Source of the DNA: Escherichia phage vB_EcoM_NBG1
Strand: one strand, 5' to 3'
Sequence record: MH243438.1
Length of the DNA: 64,000 bases
Positions 3,655-59,459 of this stretch are shown in pieces; the stretch's first letter is position 1; every line of letters begins with the position of its first letter. The position numbers and the translations under genes were made by a program. Below the pieces are notes generated by a model. That model was not told where the DNA came from and ran no database searches. It saw only the letters and a program-made list of their open reading frames with translations.

Positions 3655-3674
3655 TAAGCTCCCGAAGGAGCTTA
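3655..3674 (-). terminator. UUCG-tetraloop stem-loop at end of gene 39 (possible terminator/RNA stability element)
   Basis: minus RNA AAGCUCC-UUCG-GGAGCUU followed by A/U-rich tract; overlaps gene 39 stop. Confidence 0.4.
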
Positions 3675-9005: not shown

Positions 9006-9010
9006 TGATT

Positions 9011-9688
9011 TTATCGCTGTTTTACACTTAACGGGTCAGGATTCTCAGGGACATCTTCAAGGTCAAGCGCATAACGCTGAGCATATTTTAACATCAAAAT
9101 ATCTTTAGCGCAATCATGAATACTATCATGGGCAACAAATCCTTTTAGCGTACCCATCGGTAATGGACACGTACTTAATCCTCGTGTCAACGAGTAAGCT
9201 TCGATTGCCGTACGAATATCGCGTTGAGCCCAGAATTTAACCGGTTCTAATTTATCAGTATCAATATCTGGTTCAAGAACACCTTCATCACGATAGAGGT
9301 CACGAATCAAATCGACCAATATCGGGAAGTCAAAGCTCATACCACGGCACCACATCTGTGATTTCCATTGGTCAACTTTATTAGCTCGGCAATAGTCTAA
9401 AAAGATTTTAATGCCTTCAAGCGTAGTGACATCGTCTTCAGACGGAGCCAAGTTTTTACGTGCTTCAGCCGATTGTTCTTTCCACCATTTCATAGTGGAT
9501 TTAGCGAAAACTCGCTTCCCTTTCTGAGAAGCTAAATTAAATTTAATTCGCTTACCTCGTTGAACAAGTTCTTCAAATGATTCAACAACTTCAGGGTCGG
9601 AATTATATGCAATAACCGCAAGGTCAATAACAGCCGCTTTTGATGTATTGCCGAATGTTTCAAAATCTATAATAACATCAGTGCTCAT
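9011..9688 (-). CDS. dexA: exonuclease A (DnaQ-like 3'-5' exonuclease)
   Basis: 225 aa; Exo I motif IIDFETFG; T4 dexA length and position. Confidence 0.85.
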   Translation of the reverse strand: MSTDVIIDFETFGNTSKAAVIDLAVIAYNSDPEVVESFEELVQRGKRIKFNLASQKGKRVFAKSTMKWWKEQSAEARKNLAPSEDDVTTLEGIKIFLDYCRANKVDQWKSQMWCRGMSFDFPILVDLIRDLYRDEGVLEPDIDTDKLEPVKFWAQRDIRTAIEAYSLTRGLSTCPLPMGTLKGFVAHDSIHDCAKDILMLKYAQRYALDLEDVPENPDPLSVKQR

Positions 9689-15013: not shown

Positions 15014-15046
15014 AACAAAAAAAAAAGGAATCCCGAAGGATTCCTT
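15014..15046 (-). terminator. intrinsic terminator after soc
   Basis: minus RNA 9-bp stem AAGGAAUCC-UUCG-GGAUUCCUU followed by U9. Confidence 0.7.
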
Positions 15047-15321: not shown

Positions 15322-15329
15322 TATTTATA
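15322..15329 (-). promoter_or_regulatory. T4-type late promoter TATAAATA (soc)
   Basis: exact TATAAATA on minus strand about 32 nt upstream of soc ATG. Confidence 0.65.
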
Positions 15330-17889: not shown

Positions 17890-18549
17890 TTAACCTCGAT
17901 TCATAAATGCATTAAATATTTGGTCATCAACAGAAATTTCTAATTCGACTTCAATTGCTTCAGCCTTTTCTTCAGGTGGTAATTCGTATCCACACACTAC
18001 AATTTTTTCATCGATATCAAAATATACAGAAGCAATACGATTAATGTTACTTTCAGTTAAGTCTAAATCAACATCAACATCTTTTTGACCTACACTTAAA
18101 GGATAACTAATACGGGTTATTTTATTATCTTTAACAAAGAGTCCACCAACATACTCTGTACTGCGTTTGAAGTTTACACGTTTCCGAATTGAAAGATATG
18201 ATACATCTTTACCGTGAGCTCGGCTCATAGGACATAATGAATAGCTAGAATAAGAGATGTCAAATCCTACACCTTCAATATGAGCCAACGTGTCATGATT
18301 AAACCAATTATAATCATATGCCAAATCCATTATATTGTAATATGTGAAAGGCACAGGATTAACATCATATGTTGTACCTTTAAAATCGGCCCAGGCAACG
18401 ATTTCGTTATCTTTAACAATTACAAAAATTACACCAATATGATATCCGTTATTATTTTCGTTCGGCGTTATATTATAACATTGTGCATTAGGAAATTTAC
18501 CATATTTAAATGGTGCGTTTTTGTGCATATAATAAATCATATTATTCAC
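17890..18549 (-). CDS. hypothetical protein (syntenic with T4 61.2 region)
   Basis: 219-aa ORF, AT-rich; precise start uncertain. Confidence 0.55.
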   Translation of the reverse strand: MNNMIYYMHKNAPFKYGKFPNAQCYNITPNENNNGYHIGVIFVIVKDNEIVAWADFKGTTYDVNPVPFTYYNIMDLAYDYNWFNHDTLAHIEGVGFDISYSSYSLCPMSRAHGKDVSYLSIRKRVNFKRSTEYVGGLFVKDNKITRISYPLSVGQKDVDVDLDLTESNINRIASVYFDIDEKIVVCGYELPPEEKAEAIEVELEISVDDQIFNAFMNRG

Positions 18550-18835
18550 CTGTGATTTCGGTTACGATATCTTTGTTATCGAAATTAGGGTCACAATACA
18601 AAACATAGTTGTACTGCATGATACCACCAGACTTAAGTTGTTCAACAACTTTATTAACCATATTAGGACGGTCTCGTTTAGTGATGTTCATGATATCAGA
18701 GAAGATTTGTTGTTCAACATCTTCTTGATTTGCAGTCATTGACCACTCACAGAGGTCTTTATCATAACCTGCCGTAACTGGAGCCGGTGCACATGATACT
18801 GCAAGTAAGATTGCTGCCAATGATAACTTTTTCAT
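18542..18835 (-). CDS. sp: Spackle-like periplasmic protein (signal peptide/lipobox)
   Basis: 97 aa; N-terminal signal peptide with LAVSC lipobox-like cleavage site; size and position as T4 sp; own early promoter. Confidence 0.5.
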   Translation of the reverse strand: MKKLSLAAILLAVSCAPAPVTAGYDKDLCEWSMTANQEDVEQQIFSDIMNITKRDRPNMVNKVVEQLKSGGIMQYNYVLYCDPNFDNKDIVTEITGE

Positions 18836-19208: not shown

Positions 19209-19577
19209 TTAATTAAATTTGTTTAAACGTTCAATACACTGGACGTAGTTATTCGCGATTTGTTTCTGGGTAGGCTCTTTACCAGTTGTTTCAACATAGC
19301 GAATGAATGCGATTTCAGTAGCCTGTAAGCAATGTTCTTTAACGCGTTGTTCTTTTGACAACGCTACGGTATCAGAATCACGATAACGTTGAGCATGGGC
19401 ATCAGCTTGAATCATTCGATTACCTACAGTAACCGGGTCTTCCACTTCAACTTTAGGTTGGTTGTACTGTTTAACATTCGGATTGTAAATCAGTTGGCCA
19501 ACGTTATTAGGGATAAAGCCATGAGCACCACATCCGGTTAATCCAAATACCATTGCTAAAGCGATTAATTTTTTCAT
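19209..19577 (-). CDS. putative lipoprotein
   Basis: 122 aa; signal peptide with lipobox LTGC. Confidence 0.6.
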   Translation of the reverse strand: MKKLIALAMVFGLTGCGAHGFIPNNVGQLIYNPNVKQYNQPKVEVEDPVTVGNRMIQADAHAQRYRDSDTVALSKEQRVKEHCLQATEIAFIRYVETTGKEPTQKQIANNYVQCIERLNKFN

Positions 19578-54084: not shown

Positions 54085-55086
54085 TTATTTCAGTAAAGTT
54101 ACTTCAGAGATTTCCTCCCAACCATCTTTATCAGTTGAAATAAAATCTGCTACATAAAGAGCGGTACGTAATGATACATTGCGAAGACGAGATACATTAG
54201 CCTTCATCCAGGACAATGCTTTGTACGTTTCTGCATCCGTCAGGCCACGTTTCTGCATCATGTCAGTAGATAATATTACATCTTCAACTCGAACCATAAT
54301 CTCTTCATTAGAGTGTACTCCAAGGTCGAGATACACTGAACGAGATACTAAAGCTTGAAGGTGTGGAGCAAGTTTCGAACCCCGTTCTAACTCTTTATCG
54401 ATATCAACGTTTGTAATGAAAACGATAGTACCTTCAAACTCAAATTCTTTATCAATACCCTTATCCTCGAGATAAGATGACGCAGTGCTCCAACAAACTT
54501 TGCGTTTATCGCCTGTATCTAATGCTGCTTTAAGAAGGTTCAAGATGTCCATATCTGAGAATACGTCAACGTCGTCGATTAAGAGAACGCTGTCTGCATC
54601 ACGGTTGAGCCAAAGTTGTTCGTAAAGGCCAATACCAGAGATTTTACCATTAATGCTTTTGTATTTGATGAAACCATTACCATTAGCATTATTAAGTGCT
54701 TTATCCAGAGAGTACGTCTTACCAATACCGGCTGCACCTGAAATAATGAGTGAACGAATTTTGCCATCGATAATGCCATTCGTCATCATGTTCATTACTT
54801 TAAAGCGTTTGTTGATACGAGTTTTCATATCTTCAGCGCTTTCAATAACTGCAACTGGTGACGTCTCAACTCCTTCCATTACGATGTCTGATTTGAAGAC
54901 CCATACTCCACGTTCAGAACCATCAATCATAACGAAAATTTTACCATCACCTAAGTGGGAACATTCAGGATTAAGCTTTGCCGGGAACCATGTCTTTGTG
55001 GCGACATAAGAACCAGAGATTTCGTTATTACGATAGATACCTTTTTTGATTTGAACGTTGAACATTTTATTCTCCAATTTACTCAT
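54085..55086 (-). CDS. P-loop NTPase (AAA-like ATPase)
   Basis: 333 aa; Walker A ISGAAGIGKT and Walker B VLLIDDVD, preceded by an about 110-aa N-terminal domain. Confidence 0.7.
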   Translation of the reverse strand: MSKLENKMFNVQIKKGIYRNNEISGSYVATKTWFPAKLNPECSHLGDGKIFVMIDGSERGVWVFKSDIVMEGVETSPVAVIESAEDMKTRINKRFKVMNMMTNGIIDGKIRSLIISGAAGIGKTYSLDKALNNANGNGFIKYKSINGKISGIGLYEQLWLNRDADSVLLIDDVDVFSDMDILNLLKAALDTGDKRKVCWSTASSYLEDKGIDKEFEFEGTIVFITNVDIDKELERGSKLAPHLQALVSRSVYLDLGVHSNEEIMVRVEDVILSTDMMQKRGLTDAETYKALSWMKANVSRLRNVSLRTALYVADFISTDKDGWEEISEVTLLK

Positions 55087-55163
55087 TTCGTTTCGATAGG
55101 TCTATAATAACATATCCTAAAAGCATGTACACTACTTTTTTAAAAATATTTTAACCCCCTAAA

Positions 55164-55178
55164 GGGACCCGAAGGTCC
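55164..55178 (-). terminator. UUCG-tetraloop hairpin after the late 88-aa gene
   Basis: minus RNA GGACC-UUCG-GGUCC followed by UUUAGGGGGUU. Confidence 0.4.
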
Positions 55179-55184
55179 TCGCAT

Positions 55185-55451
55185 TTACTTATCGCACTTA
55201 GCAACATAATTAGGCATATCACAGAATACGGAGCGAGTAACTATTCGTCCCTTTGACCATGCTTCAGTTGCTTGTCCGGCCGTGCTATTAATATAGCTTG
55301 ATTTGATATTCTCAATACCCTGAGAATGTGATGCATTTACCGAACCGTTGGAAGGCCCAGAAGACTGGTTACCACCAGCTCCTGTACCTGTGGTAGCACC
55401 AACAGAGAATGCCATCATTACTGCGAATAAACCAATTACTAATTTTTTCAT
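55185..55451 (-). CDS. small secreted Gly/Ser-rich protein with C-terminal Cys pair
   Basis: 88 aa; signal peptide MKKLVIGLFAVMMAFSVGA; CDMPNYVAKC; TATAAATA late promoter upstream and UUCG hairpin downstream. Confidence 0.6.
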   Translation of the reverse strand: MKKLVIGLFAVMMAFSVGATTGTGAGGNQSSGPSNGSVNASHSQGIENIKSSYINSTAGQATEAWSKGRIVTRSVFCDMPNYVAKCDK

Positions 55452-55482
55452 ATTTACCTCAAGTTAAGAGTTATTTATCTAC

Positions 55483-56472
55483 TTATTTATAGTAAGAATT
55501 ATGATTTTCGAGATAGACTTGCTCAAGGAAATCATCCCAGAAACTCATATCTACTTTTTGTTGCATACCGTTCTTAGCGGCTTGTTCTGATGCTTGTTCT
55601 ACCTGGTCAACAATGACTTCCAGGAATTCTTGTACAGTTTTAAACGTATGTTTACCAAGCTTAACATCGAGAATAAATGGAGCATCCTGAAGTGGGTAAA
55701 CCAAGTCACCGGTTTTGTAAATTTCCAATAATTGAAGTCCACCACGACATGCATGACTCAATGCTTTCCAGTCAATACCTTCGTTAGCTTCTGCCTTACG
55801 AGCACGTTCACCATAGTTCTCTTCCAGTTTAACCAGGATGGCATTGAACTCTTTATTGGTTAACGTATCTTGGAATTTACGGTCTAACAGATTATAGAAT
55901 GTTTGCTTACCTGTTTTCTCGTTTTCGGTTTCAATCCACGAAGCAAATTCACCTACAGGCAGAACATTCTTCATATGTGATAAACGAATTACTGCGCCAT
56001 TATCAAAGTATTGTCCCCATTCATTAGAACGTTTAAGGGCTTGACGAAGAACAGCCAGTCGAGAACCCTTGACACCGTATTTAGAAGCTTGCTTACGGAC
56101 ATACCCCAAATAAGATTTCATGTTAGTGGTATAGAAACGAGACCTGTTATCTTGAATATACTTCCACACGTCAGGCAAATCAGATTTAACCACTAGACTT
56201 GGTGGAGTGTGAAGCATATCTAATGCGACAGTTTCACCATCCGCAGCTAGTTTAAAGAAATATTTGAGACTATACAACTCATGGTCCACGTCGTCTTTTG
56301 TGTTCTTAGAAGATGTGTTATTCGTGTTCTTGCTCATGTGTTCTTTAACGTTACCGGTCAAGATATCACGAGCATGAGGGACATAAATTTCTTTAAAATC
56401 GACGTCAGATTCAGGAGTAGACGTTCCATAAAGGTGGCTACCAAAGTAGCCTTTCATAATTGTTTTCATCAT
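55483..56472 (-). CDS. Pol-beta-superfamily nucleotidyltransferase
   Basis: 329 aa; N-terminal GYFGSHLYGTSTPESDVDF fits the NTase-fold GS-x9-SDxD signature. Confidence 0.7.
   Translation of the reverse strand: MMKTIMKGYFGSHLYGTSTPESDVDFKEIYVPHARDILTGNVKEHMSKNTNNTSSKNTKDDVDHELYSLKYFFKLAADGETVALDMLHTPPSLVVKSDLPDVWKYIQDNRSRFYTTNMKSYLGYVRKQASKYGVKGSRLAVLRQALKRSNEWGQYFDNGAVIRLSHMKNVLPVGEFASWIETENEKTGKQTFYNLLDRKFQDTLTNKEFNAILVKLEENYGERARKAEANEGIDWKALSHACRGGLQLLEIYKTGDLVYPLQDAPFILDVKLGKHTFKTVQEFLEVIVDQVEQASEQAAKNGMQQKVDMSFWDDFLEQVYLENHNSYYK
55484..55491 (-). promoter_or_regulatory. T4-type late promoter TATAAATA (88-aa secreted protein gene)
   Basis: exact TATAAATA on minus strand about 33 nt upstream of ATG 55451. 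Confidence 0.55.
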
Positions 56473-58322: not shown

Positions 58323-58625
58323 TTAGATAGATGTAGGCTCTAATTTTATTTTCATGAACTCGGCAAATTGTCTGGCTGTTTTTATGCCTTGTTCATGACA
58401 TTCAAATGCATCATCACAGGGGCTATTTTTGTAATGCTTTGCCATATACTTATAGAATTTTTCAGAATTCTCGACATTTTGAATTTCAAACAAAGTATAT
58501 ACGTTTTTAATCCCTGATTCCATAAAGTTATCAAAATATGGGTCAACATATGCAGTGCCAACAATAGGAGTTGTTACTGCAAAAAACCCCAGCATCACCA
58601 TGACGGCTATCGCTCTTAAGGCCAT
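58323..58625 (-). CDS. rI: lysis inhibition regulator RI-like membrane/periplasmic protein
   Basis: 100 aa; N-terminal signal-anchor MALRAIAVMVMLGFFAV; position just before tk as in T4; identity not verified. Confidence 0.55.
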   Translation of the reverse strand: MALRAIAVMVMLGFFAVTTPIVGTAYVDPYFDNFMESGIKNVYTLFEIQNVENSEKFYKYMAKHYKNSPCDDAFECHEQGIKTARQFAEFMKIKLEPTSI

Positions 58626-58637
58626 ATAGGCCTCCTG

Positions 58638-58850
58638 TTAATTTTGGCCAGTATTTATTTTTCGCCTTTGGACGGCCTTAACATCTGCGAGGTATTTTTC
58701 CAGCTTGCGCTTGCGTGTATAATCAGCTTTAGAACCAGTTTGACGGATATCCTCGTTTAAATGAGAAATAGAATGTCCTAATTCTCTTCGGATTTCATCC
58801 AATTGGGTTACAGTAAGATTACGAAGTTGTCTTTCGTTTAATTGCTGCAT
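58638..58850 (-). CDS. hypothetical protein (rI.1 position)
   Basis: 70-aa basic ORF. Confidence 0.5.
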
Positions 58851-58877
58851 ATATACCTCTTGGTTAGATATTAGTAT

Positions 58878-59459
58878 TTATAACAATCCTGTTAAATCAT
58901 TCCAATGCTTCCGGCATAATGACACATATCTATCGGTATCACCAATTTCAATTTGACTGCCATCTGTAATTGGAAGACCGTCTTCCGTGACTCTAGCTAC
59001 CATTGTGGCCTTTTTACCACAATGACAGACACCTTTAAGTTCAACAAGCTTATCGGCAATAGCCATTAATGCTTGAGAACCTTCAAATAGATTACCTTTA
59101 AAATCTGTTCGTAGTCCATATGCCATTACCGGCACATTGTATACGTCAACAATACGACTAAGTTGATACACCTTTTCAGTAGTTAAGAACTGAGCTTCGT
59201 CAACAAATACGCAGTGAATATCCTTTTGTGCTGCAGCCCATTTATAGAATTCAAAGATATCCATGTCTTTTGTAATTATATTGGCGTCCTGACGAATACC
59301 AATACGAGAGACTATTTCACCTTTTGAATCGCGAGTATCAATAGCCGGTTTAAGAACTAATACACCCATGCCACGTTCTTTATAGTTATGTGCGGCAGTA
59401 AGTAATGAAGCAGACTTACCAGCGTTCATAGCGGCATAGGTAAAAATTAAACTAGCCAT
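58878..59459 (-). CDS. tk: thymidine kinase
   Basis: 193 aa; P-loop AMNAGKS; zinc site CHCGKKA..CRKHW; strong similarity to remembered bacterial/T4 Tk. Confidence 0.9.
   Translation of the reverse strand: MASLIFTYAAMNAGKSASLLTAAHNYKERGMGVLVLKPAIDTRDSKGEIVSRIGIRQDANIITKDMDIFEFYKWAAAQKDIHCVFVDEAQFLTTEKVYQLSRIVDVYNVPVMAYGLRTDFKGNLFEGSQALMAIADKLVELKGVCHCGKKATMVARVTEDGLPITDGSQIEIGDTDRYVSLCRKHWNDLTGLL

Follow-up and report, generated by a model that had tools for sequence, protein, structure and literature searches.

An accessory gene for a small, probably exported protein in the nrdC.11-nrdC.10 interval of Mosigvirus coliphages

Between nrdC.11 and nrdC.10 of Escherichia phage vB_EcoM_NBG1 lies an open reading frame (ORF) of 88 amino acids (MKKLVIGLFAVMMAFSVGATTGTGAGGNQSSGPSNGSVNASHSQGIENIKSSYINSTAGQATEAWSKGRIVTRSVFCDMPNYVAKCDK; 55185..55451, minus strand), which was studied here in a 64,000-nucleotide stretch of the sequence record MH243438.1, hereafter called the window. 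We propose, with a probability of roughly 0.6, that this ORF is an accessory cassette occupying the slot between the two genes, and that it encodes an exported periplasmic protein which would be transcribed late in infection and for which a role at the cell envelope can be guessed. In its plainest form, the proposal is that the ORF is probably an ordinary swappable accessory gene for a small, probably exported protein, carried as an ORFan cassette bounded by a stem-loop and early-promoter element of the PeSL type. An earlier note on this DNA, made from the letters alone, had described a late-promoter gene for a small secreted protein with a cysteine pair, and its observations on the sequence were all confirmed, its interpretation in part.

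The ORF is a conserved gene of T4-type coliphages

The ORF was found where the earlier note had placed it, with a Shine-Dalgarno sequence (GAGG, 55457..55460, minus strand) 5 nucleotides ahead of its ATG that is conserved in the homologous loci. The 2.6 kb around the ORF are 97-99% identical to Mosigvirus genomes (e.g. vB_Eco_F31, JK45 and JS09), and the source phage is a Mosigvirus, that is, an RB69/JS09-like T4-type coliphage. The ORF product matches phrog_2243 over its full length (E = 4e-38), a family with no assigned function, and GenBank entries such as YP_010076176.1 (phage JK45) name it a 'hypothetical protein'. A tblastn search located the ORF in 102 phage records, every one of them from a T4-type phage of Escherichia or Shigella. 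About 96 of these 102 matches are of the Mosigvirus type, and the comparison with the 146 records in which nrdC.11 is at least 95% identical leads to the estimate that roughly two-thirds of the Mosigvirus records carry the ORF. Homologues outside Mosigvirus, with 58-66% identity, are found in Gaprivervirus (VR7, VR25, 212 and DCP80) and in Dhakavirus (04086).

The rates of non-synonymous (dN) and synonymous (dS) substitution were estimated by the Nei-Gojobori method for the window ORF against its homologues in VR7 and 04086, and for the latter two against each other. The ratio dN/dS for the window ORF against either homologue was 0.14-0.15 over the whole ORF and 0.09-0.19 over residues 32-88, while VR7 and 04086 compared with each other over residues 32-88 gave dN = 0.026 and dS = 1.29, a ratio of 0.02. 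It should be noted that dS in this C-terminal part ranges from 0.87 to 2.0, i.e. the synonymous sites are saturated. Because these ratios demonstrate strong purifying selection on the protein, the ORF is a real gene, and the possibility that it is not a gene at all is ruled out.

The protein has no known relatives outside these coliphages. There was no significant match in Pfam, NCBIfam or PADLOC, and sequence and profile searches against the PDB returned nothing at E < 0.3. When 5.8 billion proteins were searched with a word index, only 17 close relatives came up, all from phage genomes or sequencing-run contigs, and an exhaustive profile search with a hidden Markov model against 1.84 billion cluster representatives retrieved only the cluster of the ORF itself. 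No relative was found in the GTDB species genomes, and IMG/VR contains the ORF at only two loci. Likewise, no mention of the locus tags or of phrog_2243 was found in the literature; neither VR7ORF099c nor RB69ORF102c is mentioned in the papers found, which name only the phage VR7, and the region goes unmentioned in a T4 omics paper. No Mosigvirus transcriptome was among the literature matches listed.

Predicted export and domain organization

The N-terminus of the ORF product resembles a signal peptide for Sec export (residues 1-19, MKK / LVIGLFAVMMAFSV / GA|T; 55395..55451, minus strand). Lys2 and Lys3 precede a 14-residue hydrophobic core (Leu4 to Val17) and a V-G-A|T site, and the best 12-residue segment of LVIGLFAVMMAFSV has a mean Kyte-Doolittle hydropathy of 2.76. 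When scored by hand rather than with SignalP, the segment shows the three features expected of a substrate of Sec and signal peptidase I, namely a positive n-region, an h-region whose length falls between 7 and 15 residues, and small side chains at -3 and -1. In all three genera, the n-, h- and c-regions persist together with the V-x-A|T site although the residues themselves differ, the site having survived many substitutions (MKKLVIGLFAVMMAFSVGA|T, MKLKLKVAIGLLAAVMSFGVLA|T, MKMLVIGFLASVMSFSVMA|T). It is therefore plausible, judging from this conservation, that the product is exported by Sec and cleaved after Ala19. A lipoprotein was also considered, and was rejected because the ORF product has no lipobox cysteine.

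The predicted mature protein begins with a stretch in which Gly, Ser, Thr and Asn predominate (residues 20-44). Its first part, residues 20-31 (55359..55394, minus strand), is a linker rich in Gly, Ser, Thr and Ala, the length of which differs among the homologues by indels of 1-10 residues. In the homologue P0016, a frameshift and a compensating frameshift both fall within the linker and replace its sequence (GDWLPPAPAP), leaving the signal peptide and the C-terminal domain unchanged; the linker sequence therefore appears to be essentially unconstrained. What follows is a conserved C-terminal domain, residues 32-88 (PSNGS...SHSQGIENIKSSY...EAW.KGR.VT.SVFC.MP.YV..C.K; 55188..55358, minus strand). 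Near its end, CDMPNYVAKC (residues 77-86; 55194..55223, minus strand) contains two cysteines that are invariant in all the homologues, separated by eight residues in Mosigvirus and by seven in Gaprivervirus and Dhakavirus. A disulphide between Cys77 and Cys86, closing a C-terminal loop, is inferred from this invariance. Thus, the signal-peptide architecture, the Gly/Ser/Thr-rich mature part and the C-terminal cysteine pair described in the earlier note are all present in the sequence, the cleavage itself being a prediction.

A likely late promoter across the nrdC.11 stop codon

As reported in the earlier note, the ORF is preceded by an exact T4-type late promoter motif, TATAAATA (55484..55491, minus strand), which lies 32 nucleotides ahead of the ATG and overlaps the last codons and the TAA stop of nrdC.11. 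T4-type late promoters consist of TATAAATA at positions -13 to -6 and do not need a -35 element (PMC1524935, PMC2988020). The 8-bp motif by itself specifies recognition by gp55 and defines the late promoter; it is perfect in 32 of the 50 T4 late sites tabulated, and T4 late promoters with a single deviation at position -13 are known (PMC2988020). The site ahead of the ORF agrees with this definition, in that it provides the exact 8-mer on the minus strand.

The distribution of the motif in the window is also telling. There are four copies, fewer than the mean of 7.4 in shuffled sequence, and each of the four is on the coding strand with a gene start 24, 28, 31 or 32 nucleotides downstream of it, a placement for which only 2.7% of the positions qualify (P ~5e-7 for four of four). 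The remaining three copies precede soc (15322), gene 49 (47433) and rI.1-rI (58875). In T4, soc, gene 49 and rI all have late promoters. Because all four motifs are correctly placed and the 8-bp motif alone is enough for gp55, late transcription of the ORF from this site appears likely. In addition, a variant late-like motif, GATAAATA (55472..55479, minus strand), is present 20 nucleotides ahead of the ATG in all the Mosigvirus copies; it starts 4 nucleotides past the first motif, as part of a direct repeat ATAAATAA-GTAG-ATAAATAA, and its counterpart in the VR7-type promoter is, by alignment, the -10 region.

Comparison of related phages suggests how the motif may have come about. In the window, nrdC.11 ends with ...TAC TAT AAA TAA. 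The nrdC.11 genes of T4, RB69 and JS98-like phages share the Tyr-Tyr-Lys ending, followed by a TGA stop, which gives TATAAATGA; there, a CUUCGG hairpin and then an early promoter come at once, with no ORF in between. Among the loci retrieved for this comparison, TATAAATAA was found in all 11 ORF-bearing Mosigvirus loci, and TATAAATGA in all nine loci that end in Tyr-Tyr-Lys and lack the ORF (T4, RB69 and others). The next gene changes its presumed timing class together with this difference of one base in the stop codon (TGA or TAA).

The timing is not the same in the other genera. The homologues of VR7, VR25 and 212 are preceded by AAGTGCTTCA, 12 nucleotides and TATAGT or TATAAT (in short, TGCTTCA-12-TATAGT/TATAAT), and that of 04086 by AAATGCTTTA, 12 nucleotides and TACAAT (TGCTTTA-12-TACAAT). 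These elements fit the consensus of middle promoters with a MotA box, in which (a/t)(a/t)(a/t)TGCTTtA is separated from the -10 element by 12 +/- 1 bp (PMC2988021), and the Gaprivervirus and Dhakavirus homologues accordingly sit behind such promoters. The label of 'late' gene given in the earlier note is thus credible in Mosigvirus, with its gp55-type promoter, and does not extend to the family as a whole. Moreover, no terminator was found between nrdC.11 and the ORF in the window, so that earlier expression by read-through from nrdC.11 is to be expected. Given the middle promoter in the other genera and the read-through here, it seems that the phage needs the product from the middle of infection on.

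The same facts lend themselves to a different reading, in which TATAAATA is simply a by-product of the Tyr-Lys-stop codons of nrdC.11 and the ORF is a prereplicative gene, early or middle, expressed by read-through. The occurrence of TATAAATGA in the corresponding position of T4, RB69 and JS98-like phages, where no gene follows it, the MotA-box promoters of the VR7, 212 and 04086 orthologues and the uninterrupted passage from nrdC.11 into the ORF all agree with it. We nevertheless consider it unlikely. The exact 8-mer is confined to loci in which the ORF comes next (11/11 vs 0/9), exact motifs are depleted elsewhere and the other copies in the window all front known late genes; the motif is in itself sufficient for gp55 recognition (PMC2988020), and a second copy, GATAAATA, is found just 4 nucleotides further on.

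A modular slot with a PeSL-type boundary

The interval between nrdC.11 and nrdC.10 is occupied differently in different phages. In T4 it is empty. In RB69 it holds only ORF102c, of 72 amino acids, the N-terminus of which is not signal-peptide-like. In the window, as well as in JK45 and JS09, it holds only the 88-residue ORF, and F27 carries both in tandem, with the order that VR7 also has. The slot is therefore modular, as the PeSL model described below predicts. RB69ORF102c, which can take the place of the 88-residue ORF or stand in tandem with it, is conserved and about 70 amino acids long (MKTKMLEMIREAGDKGL...); it follows the exported ORF directly in F27 and VR7 and is absent from the window; within the retrieved loci, it lies at 9008-9226 in RB69, 1091-1309 in F27 and 1893-2099 in VR7.

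On its downstream side, the ORF is followed, 6 nucleotides past its stop, by a C(UUCG)G tetraloop hairpin, GGACC-UUCG-GGUCC (55165..55178, minus strand), which appears in the centroid structure. Hairpin sequences from eight phage lineages, chosen and aligned by hand, share a 7-bp stem around (C)UUCG(G) in which 98% of the cells are paired; compensatory changes affect five of the seven pairs, and no shuffle or register shift matches this result. One such compensated pair distinguishes RB69 (GGGCC/GGCCC) from the ORF-bearing loci (GGACC/GGUCC). Compared with RB69, the extra DNA starts directly after TATAAAT and stops within the hairpin. The UUCG hairpin which the earlier note had assigned to the ORF is thus present, but it is not specific to this gene, since in T4 and RB69 it directly follows nrdC.11. 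At the homologous place, the annotation of T4 has a 'terminator' and an 'early promoter 54.4'.

The hairpin can terminate only weakly, if at all, in Mosigvirus, because its tail is UUUAGGGGG, in which UUU is followed by AGGGGG, whereas an intrinsic terminator has a GC-rich stem-loop and then at least 5-6 U in a row; the VR7-type and 04086-type copies carry UUUUUU. A terminator scan called only a weaker hairpin overlapping 55165-55178. At the base of the hairpin, position 55179 (minus strand) is A in the window and G in ten other Mosigvirus loci (GAGGACC vs GGGGACC), a change that sets A against C there and leaves the source phage with a stem of 5 bp in place of 6-7 bp. On the coding strand of the window, CCUUCGGG tetraloop hairpins occur three times against 0.56 expected, at 3661-3668, 15032-15039 (after soc) and 55168-55175 (after the 88-residue ORF), all on the minus strand.

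Directly past the hairpin is an early-type promoter, TGTACA-16 nt-TG-n-TATTAT (55104..55131, minus strand), which would serve nrdC.10. A MotA-dependent middle promoter was considered for the same place and rejected; the spacing between box and -10 element is only 8-9 nucleotides, and for this reason the sequence better fits an early promoter. The promoter core ATGTTATTATAGACCTATC is found six times on the minus strand (6841, 12110, 20170, 41235, 53620 and 55095), with 0.05 occurrences expected at up to three mismatches, and represents a dispersed early promoter of the PeSL type that could mediate the shuffling of cassettes.

PeSLs, as Arbiol et al. (2010, PMC2839356) and Comeau et al. (2014, PMC4122927) call them in T4-type phages, are mobile regulatory cassettes in which a stem-loop is joined to an early promoter that recurs in the genome, with a variable ORFan alongside. 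The present locus has the stem-loop, the adjacent early sigma-70-like promoter, the repeats in the genome and the variable ORFs alongside, and it shares with PeSL and PmSL cassettes the occurrence of presence, absence and tandem states. It differs from them in its upstream boundary, which consists of the nrdC.11 stop codon with the late-promoter motif. In the text consulted of these papers, PeSLs are not described for Mosigvirus.

A possible role at the cell envelope

On these grounds, the following course of events can be proposed. The gene would be transcribed late from the gp55-type promoter that the final codons of nrdC.11 make up together with its TAA, as the statistics of the motif suggest, and probably also earlier by read-through from nrdC.11; the transcript would end at, or be stabilized by, the UUCG hairpin of the PeSL-type boundary. 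In Gaprivervirus and Dhakavirus, the gene would instead depend on MotA, and the product would be needed from the middle of infection rather than specifically when virions are assembled. The precursor of 88 residues would be exported by Sec and cut by signal peptidase I after VGA19, to give a mature periplasmic protein of about 69 residues, in which a constrained domain of 57 residues follows a floppy N-terminal stretch rich in Gly and Ser; the last 12 residues would be closed into a loop by a C77-C86 disulphide made by DsbA. The partner of the protein might then be either a periplasmic protein of the phage or some conserved part of the E. coli envelope, and its purpose might be the control of secondary infection or of lysis, much as for Sp and RI, to which it has no homology.

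To the best of our knowledge, the known small exported proteins of T-even phages (RI, Sp, the holin ectodomain and the spanins) all act in the control of secondary infection or lysis. Furthermore, dN is very low between genera whose dS is saturated, as would be expected if the partner of the protein were conserved. These two considerations, together with the confinement of the family to phages of Escherichia and Shigella, are the reasons for guessing an envelope target, and an accessory role in the periplasm is our best guess for the ORF product.

Several points weigh against this proposal. AlphaFold2 modelling gave mean confidences (predicted local distance difference test, pLDDT) of 48.7 for the full-length protein and 48.8 for the mature form, too poor to be used; with values of about 49 in both cases, the C-terminal domain may be partly disordered. 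The proposed function is a guess by analogy with the small periplasmic proteins of T4. Because the 11 ORF-bearing loci are closely related, the contrast of 11/11 with 0/9 in the promoter motif may reflect a single event. Finally, seven of the eight promoter bases are already part of the nrdC.11 coding sequence in phages without the ORF, and the exact match could therefore be partly a historical accident.

A bolder version of the proposal would make the ORF product the founder of a structurally new family of periplasmic effectors, in which a disulphide-looped mini-domain on a flexible tether binds a conserved envelope target of E. coli and blocks secondary infection or tunes lysis, with no relationship to Sp, Imm or RI; its expression would have been rewired between genera from MotA-dependent middle to gp55-dependent late by recombination at the nrdC.11 stop. 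Taken as a whole, this version is doubtful, and we put it forward only tentatively.

RI is among the closest known comparisons for the exported protein. The rI gene (58323..58625) lies in the same genome region, and its product is likewise small, directed to the periplasm and provided with two cysteines. RI uses an uncleaved SAR domain and is universal in T-even phages, whereas the ORF product has a conserved cleavage site and a patchy distribution. The parallel extends to regulation: rI is reached by a TATAAATA copy that overlaps the stop of the upstream early gene tk, just as the ORF is reached by one overlapping the stop of nrdC.11. This second stop-codon promoter motif (58875-58882, minus strand) spans the tk stop (TTA TAA ATA) 24 nucleotides ahead of rI.1 (58638..58850), and a variant, AATAAATA (58652-58659, minus strand), lies 26 nucleotides ahead of the rI start.

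One may accordingly ask if the N-terminus of the ORF product could remain uncleaved, as a signal anchor or SAR domain, which would make the protein a membrane-tethered antiholin or lysis-inhibition factor like RI. The hydrophobic segment is indeed rich in Gly, Ala and Ser, the product is small and presumably late with a cysteine pair, and rI, with its own stop-codon-overlapping late promoter, is only 3 kb away. However, the h-region comprises just 14-15 residues, the canonical -3/-1 site with small residues (V-x-A|T) is kept in three genera, and hhalign detected no profile similarity to RI (probability 1.3%). An uncleaved N-terminus thus appears quite improbable, and cleavage by signal peptidase I is the reading that we retain.

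Sp (spackle, gene 61.3; homologue at 18542..18835) is also comparable to the ORF product in having a Sec signal peptide and a length of about 90-100 amino acids. Sp is periplasmic and non-essential. Its locus and regulation differ from those of the ORF, and hhalign showed no similarity between the two proteins (probability 0.9%). Adjoining the Sp homologue is an ORF of 122 amino acids (19209-19577, minus strand) with a signal of the lipoprotein type (MKKLIALAMVFGLTGC).

It is very unlikely that the ORF product is a peptide of the bacteriocin or microcin kind, which lysis would set free to act on neighbouring cells. The idea stems from a loose likeness to microcin V (MccV) in the Gly-rich body, the size and the C-terminus (EAW...GR...C-x8-10-C), but BLASTP against an MccV precursor sequence entered by hand gave no meaningful alignment. 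A class II microcin was rejected, the leader of the ORF product being of the Sec type and not of the double-glycine type, and no immunity or export genes were found nearby in the window.

The earlier note had also likened the locus to that of the capsid decoration gene soc and suggested a virion-associated product. The layout is indeed the same in the soc locus of the window, where TATAAATA (15322-15329), soc (from 15290) and a hairpin (GGAAUCC-UUCG-GGAUUCC) are followed by an early promoter. The likeness does not go further than this arrangement of promoter, ORF and hairpin: the Soc proteins are unrelated to the ORF product and have no signal peptide, BLASTP of the ORF product against the Soc of the window gave no alignment, the soc hairpin has a full U-tract where that of the ORF has a weak one, and the soc promoter is intergenic while that of the ORF runs across the nrdC.11 stop. 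T4-type virions assemble in the cytoplasm. Since a Sec-type signal would direct the ORF product out of this compartment, a virion role such as that of a late, Soc-like decoration protein is hardly credible, the more so as RB69 and T4 lack the gene and the other genera have a middle promoter in front of it.

If it is exported and active, the ORF product would be a fourth unrelated small periplasmic effector of T-even phages, beside RI, Sp and the spanins; it would provide a handle on an envelope target of E. coli and would be of some relevance for the Mosigviruses used in phage therapy, roughly two in three of which carry the gene. Otherwise, the ORF is one among the many uncharacterised accessory genes of the hyperplastic region. 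The locus also illustrates how promoters and hairpins can act as joints for the swapping of ORFan cassettes in T4-type phages.

Neighbouring genes

Nearly all of the window is coded on one strand, with 107 of its 110 greedily called ORFs on the minus strand. In the direction of transcription, the gene order is tk, rI.1, rI, ..., nrdC.11, the 88-residue ORF, nrdC.10, ..., nrdC. This is the prereplicative nrdC-tk region, and the earlier note was therefore right in describing the ORF as embedded in the early region. The upstream neighbour, nrdC.11 (55483..56472, minus strand), encodes an RlaP-like nucleotidyltransferase, and the downstream neighbour, nrdC.10 (54085..55086, minus strand), an AAA-type ATPase. 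The mechanically called ORF of nrdC.10 begins at 55086 (MSKLENKMFNV..., minus strand), while in the GenBank relatives the gene has 981 nucleotides, i.e. it starts at the second ATG (55065), which has GGAG ahead of it.

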